DNA of 64,000 bases from NCBI GenBank assembly GCA_016187335.1, contig JACPJW010000001.1, positions 32,001 to 96,000 on the forward strand, in the 5' to 3' direction. This DNA comes from Candidatus Aenigmatarchaeota archaeon. Lineage in GTDB: Archaea; Aenigmatarchaeota; Aenigmatarchaeia; GW2011-AR5. This document shows positions 15,148 through 51,970 of the stretch, piece after piece. Below the pieces are notes generated by a model. That model did not search any database. It was given only the letters and a program-made list of their open reading frames with translations, and was not told the origin of the DNA. Made by a program: the position numbers and the translations under genes. How positions within the stretch are numbered: position 1 is the stretch's first letter; each line of letters starts with the position of its first letter.

Positions 15148-16551
15148 CTAAATGAATATTGAATATGTCGTCAAAGCTACATTATCATTTCCGTTTTTTG
15201 CCCAAAGTACAACAGTATAGACTCCACTCCCCTTAGAAAGAAGCGGTTGAATATTCGCTGTAATTGCAAAGCTTCCTCCGTTTACGTGCCATCTTGATGC
15301 CTCAACGTATTTGTAATTCATACTTGAAGTGTCATAATAAGAGCCTAGAGGTGGTGGTGCCAAAATATATCCTGCTTCATCTCCAAGACTATAAGCACCT
15401 CTATAAAAATAACTTAGCAAATCGCTCTGAGTAAGCCGCACAGGAGTCAGGTCATAATAGAGTGCAACATTCTGTATTGTTCCTAAAGACGATGTGCCTT
15501 CCATACTAAGAATTCCAGAACTGTAACTTATTGGTTCTGACCACAAAATGTAATCATCCTCGAAATCCTGCACATATGCAAGATGCGTGCTGTCATAAGC
15601 GATTCCTATGTTGACTTTATTATGATTTTTATCAAGAATGTTATCTCTATGTCCCCAATTTGAGTCCGCATCATCATTTACCATTTGATATTCATGAGTT
15701 TCGATACTTTCTTTCGGATCTATTGTTACGGCATTAGGTTCATAATAAAAGAAACCAGAAAACGCAGCATTTTCGGCTATAGACCCTTTGCCTCCTGCCT
15801 TTGTATATCGCATATATGGTTTAGACCCGTCGCTCCCCCAATGAGAAAGAAATCGGTTTTCAATCATATCTTCTGCATGTTGTTGGGCTGCGTTATTATT
15901 GCCTAATGCTACGGGCTTAAGCCCATTTTGTGTTCTATCCTCGTTAATCAATTGTAATGCATAATTGCGCAATTCCTGAAGTGTATACTGCTTTGGTTGT
16001 GCAAACCTTGTTTCTACCGTCGGTCTATAAACTTGTCTACTAAAATTAAGTGTTATTTTGTTAGTGTCGTTAAAAGAAATGTTGGGCAAATAACTCGATA
16101 CTTTGCTCCAATTAGTGTAAATCAGAAACCCAGCTACTATCAGAACGATAATAAAAACCACAGTTCTTGACACTTTTATTTCGTCTTTTTTTGCACGTTC
16201 ATATGGTATCGGAATACCATCTTTGAAAACAACAGACGGCTCTTCGTGATGCTTGATTGGCTTCGACTTTACAAACTTATCTAAGGCCTCTTTATATTGT
16301 TGCAGTTTTCGTTTGTTTTCTTCTTCCCAATGCTCCAAATAAGGTGGACAAGGATGTCCTCCAGGCTTATGCCATTCTTCCATAAAAAGTCTGTCTTTCT
16401 GAGTAGAACCTTCAAATCTAGGAAGGCCAGCCGGCTTTGGCCTGATATGCACATTGCAGAAATACTTTTGGCAATACCGACATTTTTTGAAGAATTTGTT
16501 ACCCATGTCGCATAAATGGTAATTGCATTCTATCCTCCGATTTTTAACCAT
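15148..16551 (-). CDS. CAP/SCP-domain membrane protein with N-terminal Cys/His (AN1-like) finger
   Basis: LINEDRTQNGL...AQQHAEDM...FLSHW...AEN...GHRDNIL...VNIGIA; N-terminal CxxCxxxFCxxH; AT-rich. Confidence 0.85.
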   Translation of the reverse strand: MVKNRRIECNYHLCDMGNKFFKKCRYCQKYFCNVHIRPKPAGLPRFEGSTQKDRLFMEEWHKPGGHPCPPYLEHWEEENKRKLQQYKEALDKFVKSKPIKHHEEPSVVFKDGIPIPYERAKKDEIKVSRTVVFIIVLIVAGFLIYTNWSKVSSYLPNISFNDTNKITLNFSRQVYRPTVETRFAQPKQYTLQELRNYALQLINEDRTQNGLKPVALGNNNAAQQHAEDMIENRFLSHWGSDGSKPYMRYTKAGGKGSIAENAAFSGFFYYEPNAVTIDPKESIETHEYQMVNDDADSNWGHRDNILDKNHNKVNIGIAYDSTHLAYVQDFEDDYILWSEPISYSSGILSMEGTSSLGTIQNVALYYDLTPVRLTQSDLLSYFYRGAYSLGDEAGYILAPPPLGSYYDTSSMNYKYVEASRWHVNGGSFAITANIQPLLSKGSGVYTVVLWAKNGNDNVALTTYSIFI

Positions 16552-16609
16552 CTAGTCACTAAAAAACTTTAGTTTGGTTCTTTAAAAAATCTCCTTTTTT
16601 ATATAATTT

Positions 16610-16843
16610 ATGAAAAAGAACGGACTAAGGAATAGACACAAAATTAAAATAAAGTCAAAAGTTAGAAAAACAAAACCTAAATTTAGCTACGATATTCTTG
16701 TCGATAAGTTCATTTATTCTGATTTTAACAGTAGTGAAATGCCGCTTGAGTTGGAAATTATGAAATTTATGGAAGTGAATAGAATTCCAGAGAAACATTT
16801 TGAGATATTATTTTCAAAGGTAAATAGAAAATTTTATGGATGA
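16610..16843 (+). CDS. Hypothetical protein
   Basis: ORF inside an AT-rich island. Confidence 0.5.
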   Translation: MKKNGLRNRHKIKIKSKVRKTKPKFSYDILVDKFIYSDFNSSEMPLELEIMKFMEVNRIPEKHFEILFSKVNRKFYG

Positions 16844-16891
16844 CAGTTTATTGTAATAAAAAATAGTCTTTATTCCTTTAAAGATAATTAA

Positions 16892-17128
16892 TTACTCATA
16901 CGGTTCTCCGGATGGTGTTACCCAAGTTTTTAGTTTTCCACATCTTCGACATCTTGAATGGTGATCAACAACATGGGAAGCACCGTGAAAAATTGATGTT
17001 GATGGTCCATAATCATGAAGTCCTAATTTACATTTTAAGGATCTTCCAAAATCAATTTTATAATATCCACGTATTAAAGCATAGGGGAAAGTAATAATTC
17101 TAAGTATCCATTTTATTATCCGATTCAT
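16892..17128 (-). CDS. DUF1660-like small Cys/His protein
   Basis: KCKLGLHDY...RCRRCGK pattern. Confidence 0.55.
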   Translation of the reverse strand: MNRIIKWILRIITFPYALIRGYYKIDFGRSLKCKLGLHDYGPSTSIFHGASHVVDHHSRCRRCGKLKTWVTPSGEPYE

Positions 17129-17227
17129 TTGATCATCTTAATATTCTCAGATTTCAAGTGTTTGCACCTACCCTTTTTATATGCGAGGGGCCGGATTCGA
17201 ACCGACGAAGGCACTAAGCCACTAGGT

Positions 17228-17275
17228 ATCTCACATGAGACCAGATGGCTCCATGGCCTGAACATAGCCTCAGGA
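17228..17275 (-). other. BHB intron 2 of tRNA-Leu (canonical 37/38)
   Basis: Central helix CTTA/TGAG, bulges GG|T and AT|A. Confidence 0.85.
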
Positions 17276-17282
17276 CCTAAGC

Positions 17283-17305
17283 TTGGCTTACAGCTGTTAC
17301 CTGAT
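17283..17305 (-). other. BHB intron 1 of tRNA-Leu (position 30/31)
   Basis: Central helix GGCT/AGCC, bulges AG|A and AA|G. Confidence 0.85.
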
Positions 17306-17336
17306 CTAGCCCCTTTGTCCACTCGGGAACCCTCGC

Positions 17337-17960
17337 TTAAGGCTTTTGAATTATTGCAACAATATCCATCGGGAACAATTTAAACGCTTTATGGCTGCTG
17401 TCAAAGACTCTTAGAACTTTAAAGCCGCTTTCTTCCAGAAGCTTTCTTAGCTCCTTTCTTGAGAAGAAGTAATAGTAACGATGATACTCATTATCTCCTA
17501 TTTTCCACCGCACGAAATCCTCCTTCCTTTTGAAATTAAGCCTTGGCTGGTTCTTGTTCCAGACGCTTATTATTGCTGACGATCCGGGCTTCATTACCCT
17601 CCACATTTCCATTACGGATTTCTTTCTTGGTTCTTCTCCCTCAATCTGGTGGATAACATTTGCCGCGACAACAGCGTCGAAAACATTATCCTTGAACGGC
17701 ATCGCATCTGCACGCGCGACGGCAAAAAAGGCTTTTATTTTTTCCTTAGAGGCTTTTTCCTTAGCAAGTTTGATCATTTTCTCTGCAAAATCAAAACCCA
17801 CATATTTTTTCCCTTTGATCATGTGTCTGCCAGATCCACATCCTAAATCAAGAATCAAGCCTTCTGAATTAGAGATGAAATCCACTATATCTTTATGGGG
17901 CTTTGTCCTCAAGCGATGCCATTCCGGAGCAATAGAATTCCATACTTCCCTTTGTTTCAT
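17337..17960 (-). CDS. Class I SAM-dependent methyltransferase (Trm9-like)
   Basis: ILDLGCGSGRH, RVMKPG, ISVW, RYYYFFS. Confidence 0.85.
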   Translation of the reverse strand: MKQREVWNSIAPEWHRLRTKPHKDIVDFISNSEGLILDLGCGSGRHMIKGKKYVGFDFAEKMIKLAKEKASKEKIKAFFAVARADAMPFKDNVFDAVVAANVIHQIEGEEPRKKSVMEMWRVMKPGSSAIISVWNKNQPRLNFKRKEDFVRWKIGDNEYHRYYYFFSRKELRKLLEESGFKVLRVFDSSHKAFKLFPMDIVAIIQKP

Positions 17961-17983
17961 GGTAATAATCAGAAAAAAGCCCT

Positions 17984-17994
17984 TTTAAAATATA
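17984..17994 (+). promoter_or_regulatory. Probable TATA box of tRNA-Glu
   Basis: TTTAAAATATA about 30 nt upstream of the mature 5' end at 18023. Confidence 0.5.
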
Positions 17995-18044
17995 GTTTGT
18001 AATTTGTTACAGTCTTCAAATTGCTCCCGTAGTCTAGCCCGGCA

Positions 18045-18137
18045 AAGGAGAAACTGCGTTTCTCCCTTTACCCTCTTCCTTTCTGAAAAAGAAGGGAATG
18101 AGGTTACAAGGAGAGAACCGTAGGTTCTTCTCCTGTT
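18045..18137 (+). other. BHB intron 1 of tRNA-Glu (D-loop 20a/21), built of repeat modules
   Basis: Central helix CCGG/CCTG (3 of 4 pairs), bulges CA|A and TT|A, inner stem AGGAGAA/TTCTTCT. Confidence 0.75.
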
Positions 18138-18154
18138 AGGATATCGGCCTCTCA

Positions 18155-18234
18155 GCACCCTTTCTTTTGAAAAAGAAAGTGTGCACGGAAAGAAAACTTC
18201 AGAAAAGCGTGAACGGAAAGAATGGGTGGAAGTT
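18155..18234 (+). other. BHB intron 2 of tRNA-Glu (37/38), contains repeat module D
   Basis: Central helix CTCT/GAAG (one C-A mismatch), bulges CA|G and TT|C, inner stem CACCC/GGGTG. Confidence 0.85.
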
Positions 18235-18337
18235 CGCCGAAGACGCGGGTTCAAATCCCGCCGGGAGCATAGAATTATCGGGATATATATAGCAACGGAA
18301 AAATTGAACGCTGACGTATATCCTGAAGAATATAGAA

Positions 18338-19798
18338 TTATGGTGACTGACAGTCAAATGTAATATTCATAAAAACTTGTGAGTTTATAGGCATAGACAA
18401 TTGTGTAAAGGTGAATCCATTGTTGTCGTTATTTGAAAATGAGTTCCTCGTAGAAGCCCAGAATATTCTCCTACTTGTTTCTATATCACAATAATTTGAA
18501 TTTGTGCAAGTTGAAAGTCTAACATCTTCAATAATCGTTGCGTTACTAAATTTACCAGTCACATTAGTAATTGAGCATAACCTTCCTATGTTCTGGAAAG
18601 CTTGAAGAAAGACTTCTTGAATTACAAGATCTTTTGGAAGGTTGTTTGTAATATTAACTTCAAAATAAGATACGTTGTAGATTTTTCTAACGTCTGTTTT
18701 TGGGATTTTGATTTTATCAATATTTCCTTGATCCAATACAAATCCAGTGAGATTTATCGACCTAAAAGAGAAGTTTGACCCAGTCAAAACAATTACGTTA
18801 GAATTATTGTAGTATATTACTTCCTTAAGTCCAATCTTATTGAATTCGTCATACTTTTGTTTTAAAGAAATTGGGTATGTTCTATATGTTTCATTAACAT
18901 TCAATATTACTCCAAAATAATTTTGATATGCATAATTGAAATCCAGATCATTAACAGTATAGTTTCCAATTTCAAACGGTACCCATCCATAAAACCCTTC
19001 ATTTTCTATTTCAAATTGTTGAGATTTGTGTTTGTAAAGAACTGCATTATTGAAACTTTCAAAACTACTAACAGAAGTACCATTACCGTCCAAGTAATAG
19101 AAATCAGTACTTTCTGAAATGAAATGTGTCTGTGGCATAGAGGAATAACTTATTAAAGTAAAAATTATCAAAGACGCGATAAGAAAACTAATCAAAAATT
19201 TCCTTTCGAATGGCTTTAGAGTTACAACGGGTAGTTCATATTTGATCTTATTGTTCTTATACAAAGTCAAACATACCAACGATAAAATTACTAATGAAAA
19301 TGATGTTTGAAGAAGAATAATAGAAAATATTCCATATGCCGAAAATATTGCTGTTGCGCTATTCAGAAGAATTACGCAGGACAAAATGAAGAAAGCAATA
19401 ATACCCATTTCTAAAGCTAGAAATGAATTTTCACGCTCTTTTTTTGAAAATACTCCACCCCATACAAAAACAATACTTAGAAGTAAGATAAAACTTATTA
19501 TGTAATTCAAACTATCAATAATATTTTTATTATATAGGAAAATATTGTTCGAATAAACTAAAAATCCACCTATAACAATGTAAAGTGTAATGTATACAAT
19601 TAGCCCAAGTCCTCCTGAAAGAATTAACTTATCAACATCGCTCAATCCAAATCTAAATTTTTTTGATTTGAAATCGTAAGTTGATGCAAAAATTAACGAA
19701 TATCCAAGAAATAAGACCAATACTTTAACGAGCGTATTAGCACCGAAATAATCAAAGGCTGCATTTACAGCGTCTGCAATTCCAAGTGGGTCTGCCAT
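18338..19798 (-). CDS. AT-rich multi-pass membrane protein with large extracellular domain
   Basis: About six N-terminal TM segments, Asn-rich C-terminal domain, very low GC. Confidence 0.75.
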   Translation of the reverse strand: MADPLGIADAVNAAFDYFGANTLVKVLVLFLGYSLIFASTYDFKSKKFRFGLSDVDKLILSGGLGLIVYITLYIVIGGFLVYSNNIFLYNKNIIDSLNYIISFILLLSIVFVWGGVFSKKERENSFLALEMGIIAFFILSCVILLNSATAIFSAYGIFSIILLQTSFSLVILSLVCLTLYKNNKIKYELPVVTLKPFERKFLISFLIASLIIFTLISYSSMPQTHFISESTDFYYLDGNGTSVSSFESFNNAVLYKHKSQQFEIENEGFYGWVPFEIGNYTVNDLDFNYAYQNYFGVILNVNETYRTYPISLKQKYDEFNKIGLKEVIYYNNSNVIVLTGSNFSFRSINLTGFVLDQGNIDKIKIPKTDVRKIYNVSYFEVNITNNLPKDLVIQEVFLQAFQNIGRLCSITNVTGKFSNATIIEDVRLSTCTNSNYCDIETSRRIFWASTRNSFSNNDNNGFTFTQLSMPINSQVFMNITFDCQSP

Positions 19799-19941
19799 AA
19801 TTCACATACTTCAGTGAATTATTAAACAGTCTAATTACGGACTTTTTCGGACCCTTCAACTTCTCCACTTTTCCCTGCCTTTCGCGGGAGCATTTTTCAC
19901 GCCCTTCTGAACGCTATTAATTCGTTCCTGTCCTATTCTTC

Positions 19942-20538
19942 ATGATGAGGGAGTTCATAATGCGCGCGAGGAAGGCGCACACGAAGCCTGACGTGAACCT
20001 TAACGAGCTGCCGCAGCAGGGGAAGATGGACTCGGTCTGCGCGGCGATAGCAGGCGCGCTGTGGATATCAGGCGACGTGAGGAGGGACACGGCCATCCAT
20101 GTCGTGCTGGAGGGTCCCGGCAACGCGCCGAAGACCATAAGCTTCTACGGCTCCGAGATAAGGGGCCTGCGCCACGATGAAAGATCTATGGCTTCGTACA
20201 TTGCCGACGCGCTGAAGAAGGGCGCGTGGCTGGAACTGAACGAAGAGGCAAAGGTCAGGACGGGGATAAGGGTCGCCAAGAAAAGTTTTGAAAGGCTGGT
20301 TTGGGAAAAGAAAGGAAAGAAGATGTTCGTCCTCGACAAGGACGGCAGGGACATAAGGGACGCCGAGATTCCCGCGGATTGCGTCATAATCTTCGGCTCC
20401 GCGGAGGGCCTGCCGGCAAAAACAGAAAAGCTCTTTCGCGACCTCAGGGCGGAAAAAATAAGCCTCGGGCCGACGATGCTCTTTGCCGCCCACTGCCCGG
20501 TGATCGTTAACAACGAGATGGACAGGAGAAAGCCCTGA
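19942..20538 (+). CDS. trmY: tRNA (pseudouridine54-N1)-methyltransferase
   Basis: MREFIMRA...GKMDSVC...RRDT...VLEGP...GLRHDERS; SPOUT C-terminus KISLGP. Confidence 0.9.
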   Translation: MMREFIMRARKAHTKPDVNLNELPQQGKMDSVCAAIAGALWISGDVRRDTAIHVVLEGPGNAPKTISFYGSEIRGLRHDERSMASYIADALKKGAWLELNEEAKVRTGIRVAKKSFERLVWEKKGKKMFVLDKDGRDIRDAEIPADCVIIFGSAEGLPAKTEKLFRDLRAEKISLGPTMLFAAHCPVIVNNEMDRRKP

Positions 20539-46227: not shown

Positions 46228-46272
46228 TTTTCTTTTCCGTGAACGCTTTTCTTTTCAAAAGAAAAGGGTTCT
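46228..46272. repeat. Repeat module D
   Basis: Minus strand ACCCTTTTCTTTTGAAAAGAAAAGCGTTCACGGAAAAGAAAA. Confidence 0.85.
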
Positions 46273-48356: not shown

Positions 48357-49082
48357 TCACCACGTTGCGTTGAAAGTGTTCTTTATCCTCAGGAAATCCT
48401 CCCTGCTTTTCAGCTTTATGTCGAAGAACCCGTGAAGCGCCGACTTTTCCTGCGTAGGCGGCGCAATCCTTGCAGGTATTGCCTCAATTACATTATCGCT
48501 GCGCCTTGCGTAAATAAGCGTGACATTGACAACTCCGCTTGAAACGCTTGAAGTGAACGACGCGCTGGCGTTGGTCTTGTCGTTCACTATGCCCATGGCA
48601 GCGGATGATGGCGTTGAGTCCGTTGCGTTGACCGTGACGTTTATGTTGTCATTCAGGAAATTGCCCACGGTCACCGTATATTTCGTGTTGTTTACAGAAA
48701 CTAATGCGTAAAGGATTTCTATATCCTCTTCGCCCCGCAGGAACGTGGAGAAATCCGCCAGGTTGGCTATGGCCGAGCTGTTCGCATTGCCCTGGACCCT
48801 GCTTACAATGATTATTTTCTCGTATTCGTGGTATATGTTTCTCAGTTCCTTGTCGAGAATCATCGTTTCCTGGAACCTTTTTTCCTCCAGCGTATTGTAT
48901 ATGCCGAAAACTCCGCGCAGGAGGAAGAACGCTATCAGGATTATCAGCCCGGCTATCACGAACATCTGCCCTTTAGAGGAGAAAAACCTGGCGGTTTTTC
49001 TCCCTCTACCCTCATTTCCCTTATTATTTTTTGACCTCTGAGAAGGTCTTCCGTTTTGATTGAACTTTTTTGAAAAGTTCAT
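48357..49082 (-). CDS. Minor pilin-like protein with 38-aa repeat-encoded leader
   Basis: ATG overlaps the upstream TGA (ATGA); MNFSKKFNQ...RFFSSKG|QMFVIAG. Confidence 0.8.
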   Translation of the reverse strand: MNFSKKFNQNGRPSQRSKNNKGNEGRGRKTARFFSSKGQMFVIAGLIILIAFFLLRGVFGIYNTLEEKRFQETMILDKELRNIYHEYEKIIIVSRVQGNANSSAIANLADFSTFLRGEEDIEILYALVSVNNTKYTVTVGNFLNDNINVTVNATDSTPSSAAMGIVNDKTNASASFTSSVSSGVVNVTLIYARRSDNVIEAIPARIAPPTQEKSALHGFFDIKLKSREDFLRIKNTFNATW

Positions 49083-49504
49083 ATTTTTCTCCACATCCAT
49101 AGTATCACTTTTTTGCCTGTGTATACGTTGCGGTAATCGGCGATGTAATATTTTACAGCCACCACGGTCTCGTTTCCTGCCACCGAAGCGGAAGAGCAGT
49201 TGGACTTGCATATGTTTACCTCGTAAGCGAGGTTCTTGGAAAGTAAAGGTGACAGGAGGCTTTTTAGTTCCGCTTCGTTGCTGCTGGACACGATGCGCCG
49301 CAGGTCGCCGTACTTGTCCATGTACTCCAGAGATTCAAAGCCCTGCTGCTTGATGTTGCTTATTTCCAGCTCGGGCCTCTGCGACGGCACGCTGAACATC
49401 ACGCTTATGCTGATGAGTATCAGCGTGATTATGACAAGGGCTTCAAGTGTGTAGATGTACCCTTTAGAGGAGAAAAACCTTGGTTTTTCTCCTCCTATCC
49501 TCAT
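49079..49504 (-). CDS. Minor pilin-like protein, repeat-encoded leader
   Basis: MRIGGEKPRFFSSKG|YIYTLEAL; frame stays open through repeats to 49642. Confidence 0.8.
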   Translation of the reverse strand: MRIGGEKPRFFSSKGYIYTLEALVIITLILISISVMFSVPSQRPELEISNIKQQGFESLEYMDKYGDLRRIVSSSNEAELKSLLSPLLSKNLAYEVNICKSNCSSASVAGNETVVAVKYYIADYRNVYTGKKVILWMWRKI

Positions 49505-49718
49505 TTCCTTATTATTTTTTTGATAGAACTTTTTTTGTAAAAAAGTTCTACTCATTCCCTTATTATTTTCTTTCATTTCATTACCCTTTTCCTCGAAGAA
49601 CGAAGTTCTTCGGGATTTCGAAGAAATTTTATTTCTTCGCAAATGATGAAACTTTTCGGAAAAGTTTCGGTTATCCGACCATTTTATTTTTTTGATGAAA
49701 CTTTTTTCTAAAAAGTTT
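49460..49718. repeat. Array of modules A, B and C
   Basis: GGAGAAAAACC-TT-GGTTTTTCTCC; three B hairpins; GAAGAAC-GAA-GTTCTTC. Confidence 0.85.
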
Positions 49719-51367: not shown

Positions 51368-51970
51368 TCAAACGTTTGTTACGCTTACTTCGTCGGTGCC
51401 GTTGTCGTACCTGACATAGCTTATTTCGCTCTTTCCGCCGCTGGTGCCGCCCCTGAAGGTTGCGTTGAATCCCATGACGCACGTGTCGTTGATGTAAGGG
51501 GTGCCCAGGGTTTCAACAAGCAGCGTGTCGTTTGCAAATCTTGTCCTGTATTTCAGCCCGCCTATTTTTTCGGGCATTGAGACGATTATCCTGCCCAGAG
51601 TCGTGTTCGTCCTTGAAACGTATTCGCGCGGTATCATGAGCTTTTCAACGGATGTTTTCATTATGTCGCACGTCTGCAGAATCTCCTTTTTGCCGACGAA
51701 TTTCTTGTTCTCGTCTATGAGCGAGTTCATCGTGGAAACTATAATCCATATCATGATCAGGCTGAAAGCAACGGCAAACGCATGCATCACGAGCTGCGAC
51801 TGGCCTTTACGGGAGAAGAAACTACGTTTCTCTCCCTGTACCCTCATTTCCTTATTATTTTTTACAGAACTCTGAGAAGTTCTACCGTTTTGATTGAACT
51901 TCCTTCGAAAACCACAGGTTTTCGGGGACTCAGGAAAGCTATGCTTTCCTCGAGTTTTTGAAAAGTTCAT
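51368..51970 (-). CDS. Minor pilin-like protein with 56-aa repeat-encoded leader
   Basis: GGTGA Shine-Dalgarno and ATGA overlap at 51970; SFFSRKG|QSQLVMHAF. Confidence 0.82.
   Translation of the reverse strand: MNFSKTRGKHSFPESPKTCGFRRKFNQNGRTSQSSVKNNKEMRVQGEKRSFFSRKGQSQLVMHAFAVAFSLIMIWIIVSTMNSLIDENKKFVGKKEILQTCDIMKTSVEKLMIPREYVSRTNTTLGRIIVSMPEKIGGLKYRTRFANDTLLVETLGTPYINDTCVMGFNATFRGGTSGGKSEISYVRYDNGTDEVSVTNV

Follow-up and report, generated by a model that had tools for sequence, protein, structure and literature searches.

The window (the whole stretch of 64,000 nucleotides analysed here, corresponding to G000:C2:32001-96000) contains at positions 18023-18269 a real tRNA-Glu(CUC) gene interrupted by two introns, with all its parts on the forward strand. 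Exon 1 (18023-18044; tRNA positions 1 to ~20a) provides the 5' strands of the acceptor and D stems together with the greater part of the D-loop, exon 2 (18138-18154) the 3' strand of the D stem, the 5' strand of the anticodon stem and C32-A37 with the anticodon CUC at 18151-18153, and exon 3 (18235-18269) C38, the 3' strand of the anticodon stem, the variable loop, the T arm, the 3' strand of the acceptor stem and the discriminator A. Read by hand, the gene has an acceptor stem of GCUCCCG/CGGGAGC, a T arm of GCGGG-UUCAAAU-CCCGC and an anticodon stem, UCGGC/GCCGA, that encloses CUCUCA; the variable loop measures 4 nt and the CCA is not encoded. Excision of both introns leaves a 74-nt canonical cloverleaf, which ARAGORN reports as tRNA-Glu(ctc). 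The hand reading and this call on the spliced 74-mer agree with an earlier note on this DNA, which had described the gene as 70% intron with introns of 93 and 80 nt; the two introns make up 173 of its 247 nt. It is the sole CUC gene in the genome, the only other tRNA-Glu being a UUC gene at C2:255085-255264, and its exons are conserved over two families. The gene appears to be functional and single-copy, with a transcript that is predicted to be spliced. The TATA-like box CCCTTTTAAAATATAG (17980-17995, forward strand), recognised by reading the sequence 28-43 nt upstream of the mature 5' end, is its probable promoter, and relatives possess TTTAAA-type boxes at a similar distance. Run on the window, plain ARAGORN reported no tRNA and the Rfam model detected the T arm alone, leaving the gene uncalled at the gathering score, because the introns interrupt it. 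In practical terms, this tRNA-Glu(CUC) is entirely missed by standard tRNA callers.

The host genome (1.01 Mb in two contigs, 47% GC, 91% complete) was assembled from groundwater metagenomes. Presence of the Archaea_SRP RNA in the window indicates that the host is archaeal, and public records bearing the same repeat modules as those described below are named Aenigmarchaeota. The 4-kb segment of the window at 16001-20000 has a GC content of 35%, versus 44-54% in the rest, and contains both the tRNA-Glu(CUC) and an intron-containing tRNA-Met (17182-17336, minus strand, detected by ARAGORN with the -i option).

Intron 1 (93 nt, 18045-18137) interrupts the D-loop at about position 20/21, as placed by an MFE fold, a hand check of the BHB and comparison with intron-free relatives. 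In the MFE fold it forms a long imperfect hairpin with a relaxed BHB. By hand, the inner helix has 7 bp (AGGAGAA/UUCUUCU, with one G.U pair), the central helix CCGG/CCUG forms three of its four pairs, the bulges CAA and UUA have 3 nt each and the outer helix consists of 1 bp only, which amounts to a relaxed BHB of the HBh' type at a non-canonical position; position 20/21 is among the tRNA intron positions listed in PMC4090602. The boundary possibly lies 1 nt further to the right, an A being common to both ends, and the predicted junction, GGCA joined to AGGAU, equals the uninterrupted D-arm of relatives. An exact-match scan of metagenome contigs for the junction of intron 1 and exon 2 returned no matches. 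Intron 2 (80 nt, 18155-18234) occupies the canonical 37/38 position, with cuts predicted after A37 (18154) and before C38 (18235). Its motif is of the hBHBh' type: a 5-bp exon helix, bulges UUC and CAG of 3 nt each, a central 4-bp helix with three pairs and one C.A, and a 5-bp inner helix CACCC/GGGUG.

We infer that both introns are spliced, and the genome encodes both the splicing endonuclease and the ligase for this. EndA, recognised by its N and C domains (PF02778 and PF01974; C2:410532-410810, minus strand), is a single 202-aa protein of the alpha type whose best solved relative is the alpha4 enzyme of M. jannaschii, and RtcB is encoded at C2:765179-766423. The gene for this single alpha-type EndA has, 135 nt upstream of it, a 187-aa ORF (L001:2218-2781, minus strand) that gave no PDB or Pfam match and might encode a divergent structural subunit.

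Hairpin modules in the introns and elsewhere in the genome

The earlier note had proposed that both intron bodies are made of repeats dispersed in the genome, and BLAST, nhmmer and a shuffle control agree on this point. Scored by BLAST, the top non-self match of either intron reaches 56.7 bits, and none of 100 dinucleotide-preserving shuffles gave more than 34.7 bits; matches of at least 34 bits number 4 for intron 1 and 19 for intron 2, with at most one for any shuffle. For both introns, low-complexity chance as represented by the shuffles therefore falls far below the observed matches. Comparison of both introns with Rfam yielded sub-threshold miRNA-like hairpin noise only.

The repeat in intron 2, here called module D, lies at 18155-18196 (forward strand; nhmmer E=2.8e-9 and structural parse) and consists of a 30-nt hairpin with a C.C mismatch (18155-18184) followed by the tail ACGGAAAGAAAA (18185-18196). 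A second, partial module D tail, matching AAAGCGNNNRCGGAAA, follows at 18204-18219 on the same strand (pattern match at G000:C2:50204-50219). The host genome has 33 copies of module D at E<=1e-4 (nhmmer). The module is built from three variable outer base pairs, then C-G, C.C and C-G, a T-rich arm, a loop, an A-rich arm and the tail RCGGAAARGAAA, with the tail motif RCGGAAA and often a subsequent ATATTA. With the stems of this module and of module A (below) parsed by anchoring, one anchored parse being noisy, all three outer pairs are formed in each of the 30 parsed copies of module D, in 11 different combinations, whereas 2000 trials with shuffled partners averaged 8.9 and never exceeded 17. 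At the fifth pair, 28 of the 30 copies have C.C and the other two C.U, and none has a standard pair. Given that self-templated repair of a palindrome would erase such a mismatch, its retention argues for selection on a specific imperfect structure.

At least 14 copies of module D lie within tRNA or SRP introns, the tRNA sites being 59/60, the D-loop and 37/38, and further copies lie inside the 16S and 23S rRNA genes (loci L080 and L081). About 10 copies start no more than 2 nt from a co-oriented stop codon, and two intergenic copies sit between convergent genes, facing no downstream gene. Besides intron 2, the earlier note had placed this module near 42734, 43715 and 46230 of the window; the search recovered these copies at 42736-42774 (forward strand), at 43715-43753 (minus strand), directly after a TAA stop codon, and at 46229-46267 (minus strand), directly after a TAG stop codon. 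The first of them opens a 142-nt insertion in the SRP RNA gene (window 42695-43085, forward strand), where the Rfam model has 23 nt between helix 3 and the next helix; the insertion, which has close to its end a GGTCT with the potential to pair with its beginning, is probably a BHB-type intron. The 16S rRNA gene (G000:C2:239678-242953, minus strand; locus L080 or L081) spans 3276 nt for a model of 1478 positions, with ~1.8 kb of insertions that contain several module D tails, for example at 239926 and 242447. The 23S match (C2:208287-211211, minus strand) is a single piece covering model positions 1423-2973 only and holds a module D copy at 210425. In a further tRNA D-loop intron (G000:C1:26012-26161, minus strand), one module D hairpin is accompanied by four tandem 19-nt units that repeat the module D tail (..ATGCACGGAAAGAAAAAGA..). 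No terminal inverted repeats and no clear target duplication were seen in the modules; the intergenic copies of module D are bounded by TA...TA, the 5' TA being part of the stop codon.

The siting of module D after stop codons raised the question of whether its tail serves as the promoter of the next gene. As a general reading this was rejected, given that the distances to the following start vary from 14 to ~98 nt, that the two copies between convergent genes have no gene to serve, and that at 46229 the promoter-like box TATATATAC, common to the same-genus genome G028, lies further downstream, beyond the module. The idea that the stop codon at 46229 belongs to an mRNA intron was likewise rejected, as G028 has the same stop codon without the module. 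A related suspicion is that the tRNA-Glu(CUC) locus is not spliced in cis at all, being either a decaying pseudogene swamped by repeats or a set of exons transcribed from separate promoters and joined in trans, as in Nanoarchaeum. The resemblance of the module D tail to a BRE/TATA pair in some copies, together with the failure of plain ARAGORN and of the Rfam model at its gathering score to call a gene, would suit this reading. We consider it exceedingly improbable: the three exons are intact, conserved, colinear and contiguous within 247 nt rather than dispersed over separate loci as in split tRNAs, splice motifs are present in cis at both introns, and no other CUC gene exists in the genome. 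Moreover, the ATATTA part is missing from the intron 2 tail, and both the downstream TATATATAC box at 46229 and the convergent intergenic copies speak against a promoter role.

Intron 1 is built from a different repeat, module A. A forward copy, AAGGGAATGAGG followed by a hairpin, lies at 18092-18138 (forward strand; nhmmer E=7e-11), and an inverted, degenerate copy at 18046-18077 (minus strand; nhmmer reverse-strand E=4.2e-4) bears out the earlier observation that an inverted copy of the module opens the intron. The two pair with each other into a helix adjoining the intron 1 splice sites. The forward copy matches window 51809-51859 (minus strand) at 84% over 51 nt (BLAST, E=2e-9); alignment reproduced the 33 of 37 identities previously reported for intron 1 against 51812-51848 in reverse complement, as well as the compensatory exchange in the hairpin stem, from a C-G to an A-T pair. 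Apart from the inverted copy, module A has 12 forward copies in the host genome at E<=7e-7 (nhmmer), located within pilin-like gene leaders, immediately upstream of mature tRNA 5' ends, in tRNA introns and after stop codons. Its stem also covaries with a copy from the same genus, which has TAG..CTA versus TAC..GTA in intron 1. RNAalifold on a MAFFT alignment of the module A copies, in which the 3' arm was misaligned, gave no compensatory pairs. Taken with the formation of the outer pairs in all 30 parsed copies of module D and its C.C mismatch, the module A exchange upholds the proposal that the hairpin is under selection.

The leader of a pilin-like ORF (51368-51970, minus strand) contains the window copy of module A at 51808-51853 (minus strand). 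Other pilin-like genes are present in the window at 43758-44282, 48357-49020 and 49079-49510, also on the minus strand, and elsewhere at C2:893374-893799. The earlier identification of 51812-51848 as a prepilin leader is supported by the motif of KG followed by a hydrophobic stretch; on the other side, the Pfam matches of two such genes (Pilin_N and DUF7266) are below the cut-off. The pilin-like genes read through module A in two frames, as GEKxxFFS.KG or as RRRETVGFSSSKG, and begin at different upstream start codons.

Turnover among relatives and distribution across archaea

To place the two introns in a comparative context, tRNA-Glu genes from relatives were considered, ten being CUC and three UUC. 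A 37/38 intron is present in nine of the ten CUC orthologues, over two families and always with the module D architecture, implying that both the site and the kind of its occupant are old. Intron 2 of the host is 91-93% identical to paralogous copies of the module, and its body is unlike the orthologous 37/38 introns. The earlier note had concluded that repeats colonise or create tRNA introns: colonisation accords with the membership of both introns in repeat families, but creation is not borne out, and at 37/38 the interruption of nine of the ten orthologues indicates that the site predates the host's version of the repeat. The body of intron 2 thus appears to have been replaced or homogenised rather than newly inserted. 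In a contig from another study, intron 1 and exon 2 are retained (2 differences over 110 nt) and 42 other letters replace the intron 2 body. Most of the DNA contig pieces aligned with the locus were exons of tRNA-Glu genes from other organisms or further copies of the modules. In three relatives the Glu 37/38 intron is a GC-rich variant, which is single-copy and conserved between genera at 33 of 35 positions.

Among the compared tRNA-Glu genes, only those of G022 and G024 have a D-loop intron at the site of intron 1, with an unrelated 30-nt body. Intron 1 aligns instead, over most of its length, with the D-loop intron of tRNA-Ile(UAU) in G027, a genome of another genus; the alignment includes both modules, inverted and forward, as well as the spacer and the junction context, and the first 35 bases, comprising the inverted module, are identical at 33 positions. 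The D-loop intron of tRNA-Ile(UAU) in G026 also matches, with an extra double hairpin nested in one loop. The host's own tRNA-Ile(UAU) has no D-loop intron. Its presence in the tRNA-Glu and absence from the tRNA-Ile of the host suggests that the intron moved between unrelated tRNAs, and given that it is common to the tRNA-Ile of another genus it looks ready-made on arrival; it does not look like a free repeat that landed in an intact tRNA. Homologous introns thus occur in tRNAs of different identity, as is characteristic of transposed introns, both in the Glu/Ile pair and in the form of module D in at least 14 introns.

The double hairpin of G026, a ~55-nt insertion within the loop of its inverted module A (L058, compared with L059 of G027), makes these two species of one genus a clear-cut filled/empty pair with respect to a third module type; the same type is also nested at C2:716207 of the host genome. 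For module D, the orthologous site of the 46229 copy is empty in G028. The ortholog of the 43715 copy is present there and is 96% identical, compared with 74-79% for the flanking genes; its 5' arm has decayed, and its 3' arm and tail are nearly identical to those of the host. At this site (G028:C72, compared with window 43696-43740), the decayed module D is preceded by an AACTTTG-type hairpin with the tail ATCAAAAG.

Counts of the tail motif extend this picture to the phylum. There are 47 copies in the host genome, the most in its family, and 0 to 47 per genome overall, with the reversed-pattern control near 0. The motif occurs in 40 of the 44 genomes of the family and in 63 of the 151 in the phylum sample, in a patchy manner, with whole families of the same phylum at 0/10 or 0/11 genomes. 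G018 shows module D with the same dual siting and a very uniform stem, and a 15-mer of module A is found in 14 of the 70 genomes of the order. Beyond the phylum, the full module D is present in Methanophagales/ANME-1 (4-6 per genome), Hadesarchaea, Nanoarchaeia, Woesearchaeota and unclassified archaea. The contig scan with a 19-mer of module D gave mostly chance bacterial matches, which lack the hairpin, and only archaeal matches with an upstream hairpin were counted. In ANME-1, copies of module D also lie right after stop codons.

Several Methanophagales/ANME-1 loci (L213, L218, L215, L220 and L214) have a short module D inside IS200/IS605 tnpA-like reading frames. In L213 and L218 it lies in frame between HVHIFIK and PPKYSVSW, in L215 it opens with an in-frame TAA ahead of GWEVVEQYISGQ, in L220 a direct repeat of ~13 nt stands on either side of it, and in L214 an AACTTTT-type hairpin is nested in its loop. 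These copies could be mRNA introns or tolerated inserts.

Mobility or host function

Module siting inside tnpA-like frames, along with the form of the modules, raises the possibility that they are REP/BIME-like or IS200/IS605-derived palindromes (REPtron or PATE type) that depend for their movement on a Y1 (HUH) transposase acting in trans. They are indeed imperfect hairpins with a conserved mismatch and a conserved flank, many of them lie at gene ends, some after GTAG, and Y1_Tnp genes occur in 19 of the 44 genomes of the family. However, the host genome, the richest of its family in copies, has no match to Y1_Tnp (PF01797) or TnpB (PF07282), and copy number does not track Y1 presence. An nhmmer search of 10 Y1 loci of relatives with their flanks found neither module D nor module A, and the GTAG is simply the upstream stop codon, being replaced by TAA in other copies. 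Neither a cognate Y1 gene in the host genome nor a correspondence of the repeats to the end hairpins of an element, as in REP/RAYT and IS200/IS605 systems, was found; a link to the Y1 transposase was accordingly set aside as unsupported, and we regard this explanation as very improbable. A reverse transcriptase (RVT_1) is likewise absent from the host genome, as represented by the two contigs at 91% completeness.

The reading that we favour, with a probability of about 0.6, is that the modules are selfish hairpins that multiply by copy-and-paste, and that they and ready-made introns survive where the sequence is later removed. The primary transcript of tRNA-Glu(CUC) would have to lose two introns before it works, with the single alpha-type EndA cutting at the BHB motifs and RtcB ligating the exons. 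The intron bodies would be copies of small hairpin modules that spread both horizontally and within genomes, persisting wherever extra sequence is later discarded or harmless: in introns of tRNA, rRNA and SRP RNA, in tRNA 5' leaders, in the cleaved leaders of pilin-type proteins and in the first bases after stop codons. Intron 2 would represent the ancient 37/38 site with its body replaced by, or homogenised to, the host's variant of module D, whereas intron 1 would be a ready-made palindromic intron of inverted plus forward module A, derived from an equivalently placed intron of another tRNA or from a source common to both. In both, the module or a short complement would give the helix at the splice sites and a few exon bases the central 4-bp helix. 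We infer that the modules are mobile and that some copying route exists; flow between introns and intergenic copies could have run either way.

This reading is weakened by the fact that no mobilising enzyme was found and that the 10 Y1 loci of relatives carry no module at their ends. It is weakened further by features more like purifying selection (the C.C in 28 of 30 copies, the 96%-identical ortholog and the GC-rich variant conserved at 33/35 positions), and by the tight abutment of copies to stop codons, which could reflect function rather than tolerance. Most of these points sustain the main alternative, namely that the modules are host-functional RNA or single-stranded DNA motifs, present in introns on account of their usefulness there, whose many copies reflect convergent recruitment instead of mobility. 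A conserved archaeal protein would then recognise the C.C-mismatched hairpin with its RCGGAAA tail, for instance in marking RNA 3' ends or processing sites, or in stabilising excised circular introns. The invariant mismatch and covarying outer stem suit such a motif, as do an ortholog better conserved than its neighbouring genes, with 3' arm and tail kept despite a decayed 5' arm, the fixed post-stop position in both Aenigmarchaeota and ANME-1, the cross-genus conservation of a single-copy intron variant and a host genome with no transposase. What makes this alternative doubtful in our view is the patchy distribution, with entire families of the phylum devoid of the motif, a copy number ranging from 0 to 47, filled and empty orthologous sites, and nested insertions. 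To these may be added the two copies between convergent genes, others in coding leaders and inside transposase reading frames, and the lack of a known candidate for the binding protein.

A bolder extension of the selfish reading, which we think improbable, is that modules D and A and their relatives constitute undescribed, pan-archaeal, intron-borne elements with no transposase of their own. EndA and RtcB would excise and circularise them, they would re-enter at BHB-competent or otherwise permissive sites, and they would cross between phyla. If this were true, IS200/IS605 transposase genes, which contain the module in Methanophagales, might carry them across, and the modules would be the long-sought vehicle of intron gain in archaeal tRNA, rRNA and SRP RNA genes.

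Relation to known systems

The REP/BIME sequences, the Rickettsia palindromic elements and the Correia elements are short imperfect palindromes dispersed at the ends of bacterial genes. Like them, the modules described here are in some cases situated in coding or RNA genes, in some cases nested, and lineage-dependent in copy number. They differ in that the host is an archaeon with neither a RAYT nor a Y1 transposase, and in that their main niche appears to be the introns of RNAs predicted to be spliced.

Closer to the locus are the tRNA introns of Thermoproteales, for which transposition has been inferred without a mechanism (Fujishima et al. 2010, via PMC4090602). The two systems have in common BHB or relaxed BHB splicing, here predicted, and movement that lacks a known mechanism; the sharing of intron 1 between Glu and Ile genes is the very signature described there for intron transposition. 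The present case departs from Thermoproteales in its DPANN host (Aenigmarchaeota) with a single alpha-type EndA, in modular hairpins that are not confined to introns, being found also behind stop codons and in the leaders of tRNAs and of pilin-type proteins, and in the recurrence of module D in distant archaeal phyla. ARMAN-2 and other DPANN (PMC3239211, PMC5829648) offer the parallel of an ultrasmall archaeon with multiple and non-canonical introns, including the 59/60 T-loop position, and a broad EndA specificity has been inferred for them in these papers. In contrast to ARMAN-2, the EndA of our host is not the epsilon2 three-unit enzyme; its 202-aa alpha type led us to reject an identity of the host with ARMAN-2. 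Repeat modules shared among introns are not described in either paper. In Asgard archaea, many independent intron gains at BHB-competent sites of tRNA genes have been reported, with D-arm introns missed by standard callers (bioRxiv 10.64898/2026.10.13.758758); in that study no mobile elements, no introns copied from one tRNA to another and no other route by which introns arrive were found, whereas an intron copied between tRNAs, and bodies shared with dispersed repeats, can be seen directly in the present case.

The locus therefore resembles the transposed BHB introns already known. What is new is an old 37/38 site with a paralog-like body, the sharing of an intron between tRNA-Glu and tRNA-Ile, and the presence of module D in ANME-1, Hadesarchaea and Nanoarchaeota. 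Side by side, the locus and its relatives display a swapped body at an old site, an intron common to different tRNAs of different genera, and free-living modules, whose sequences recur at the ends of genes, in the leaders of tRNAs and in signal peptides that are cleaved off. Given their sharply defined structure and their occurrence in several archaeal phyla, these modules can be modelled, counted and tested biochemically, and they offer a concrete lead on how archaeal tRNA introns spread.
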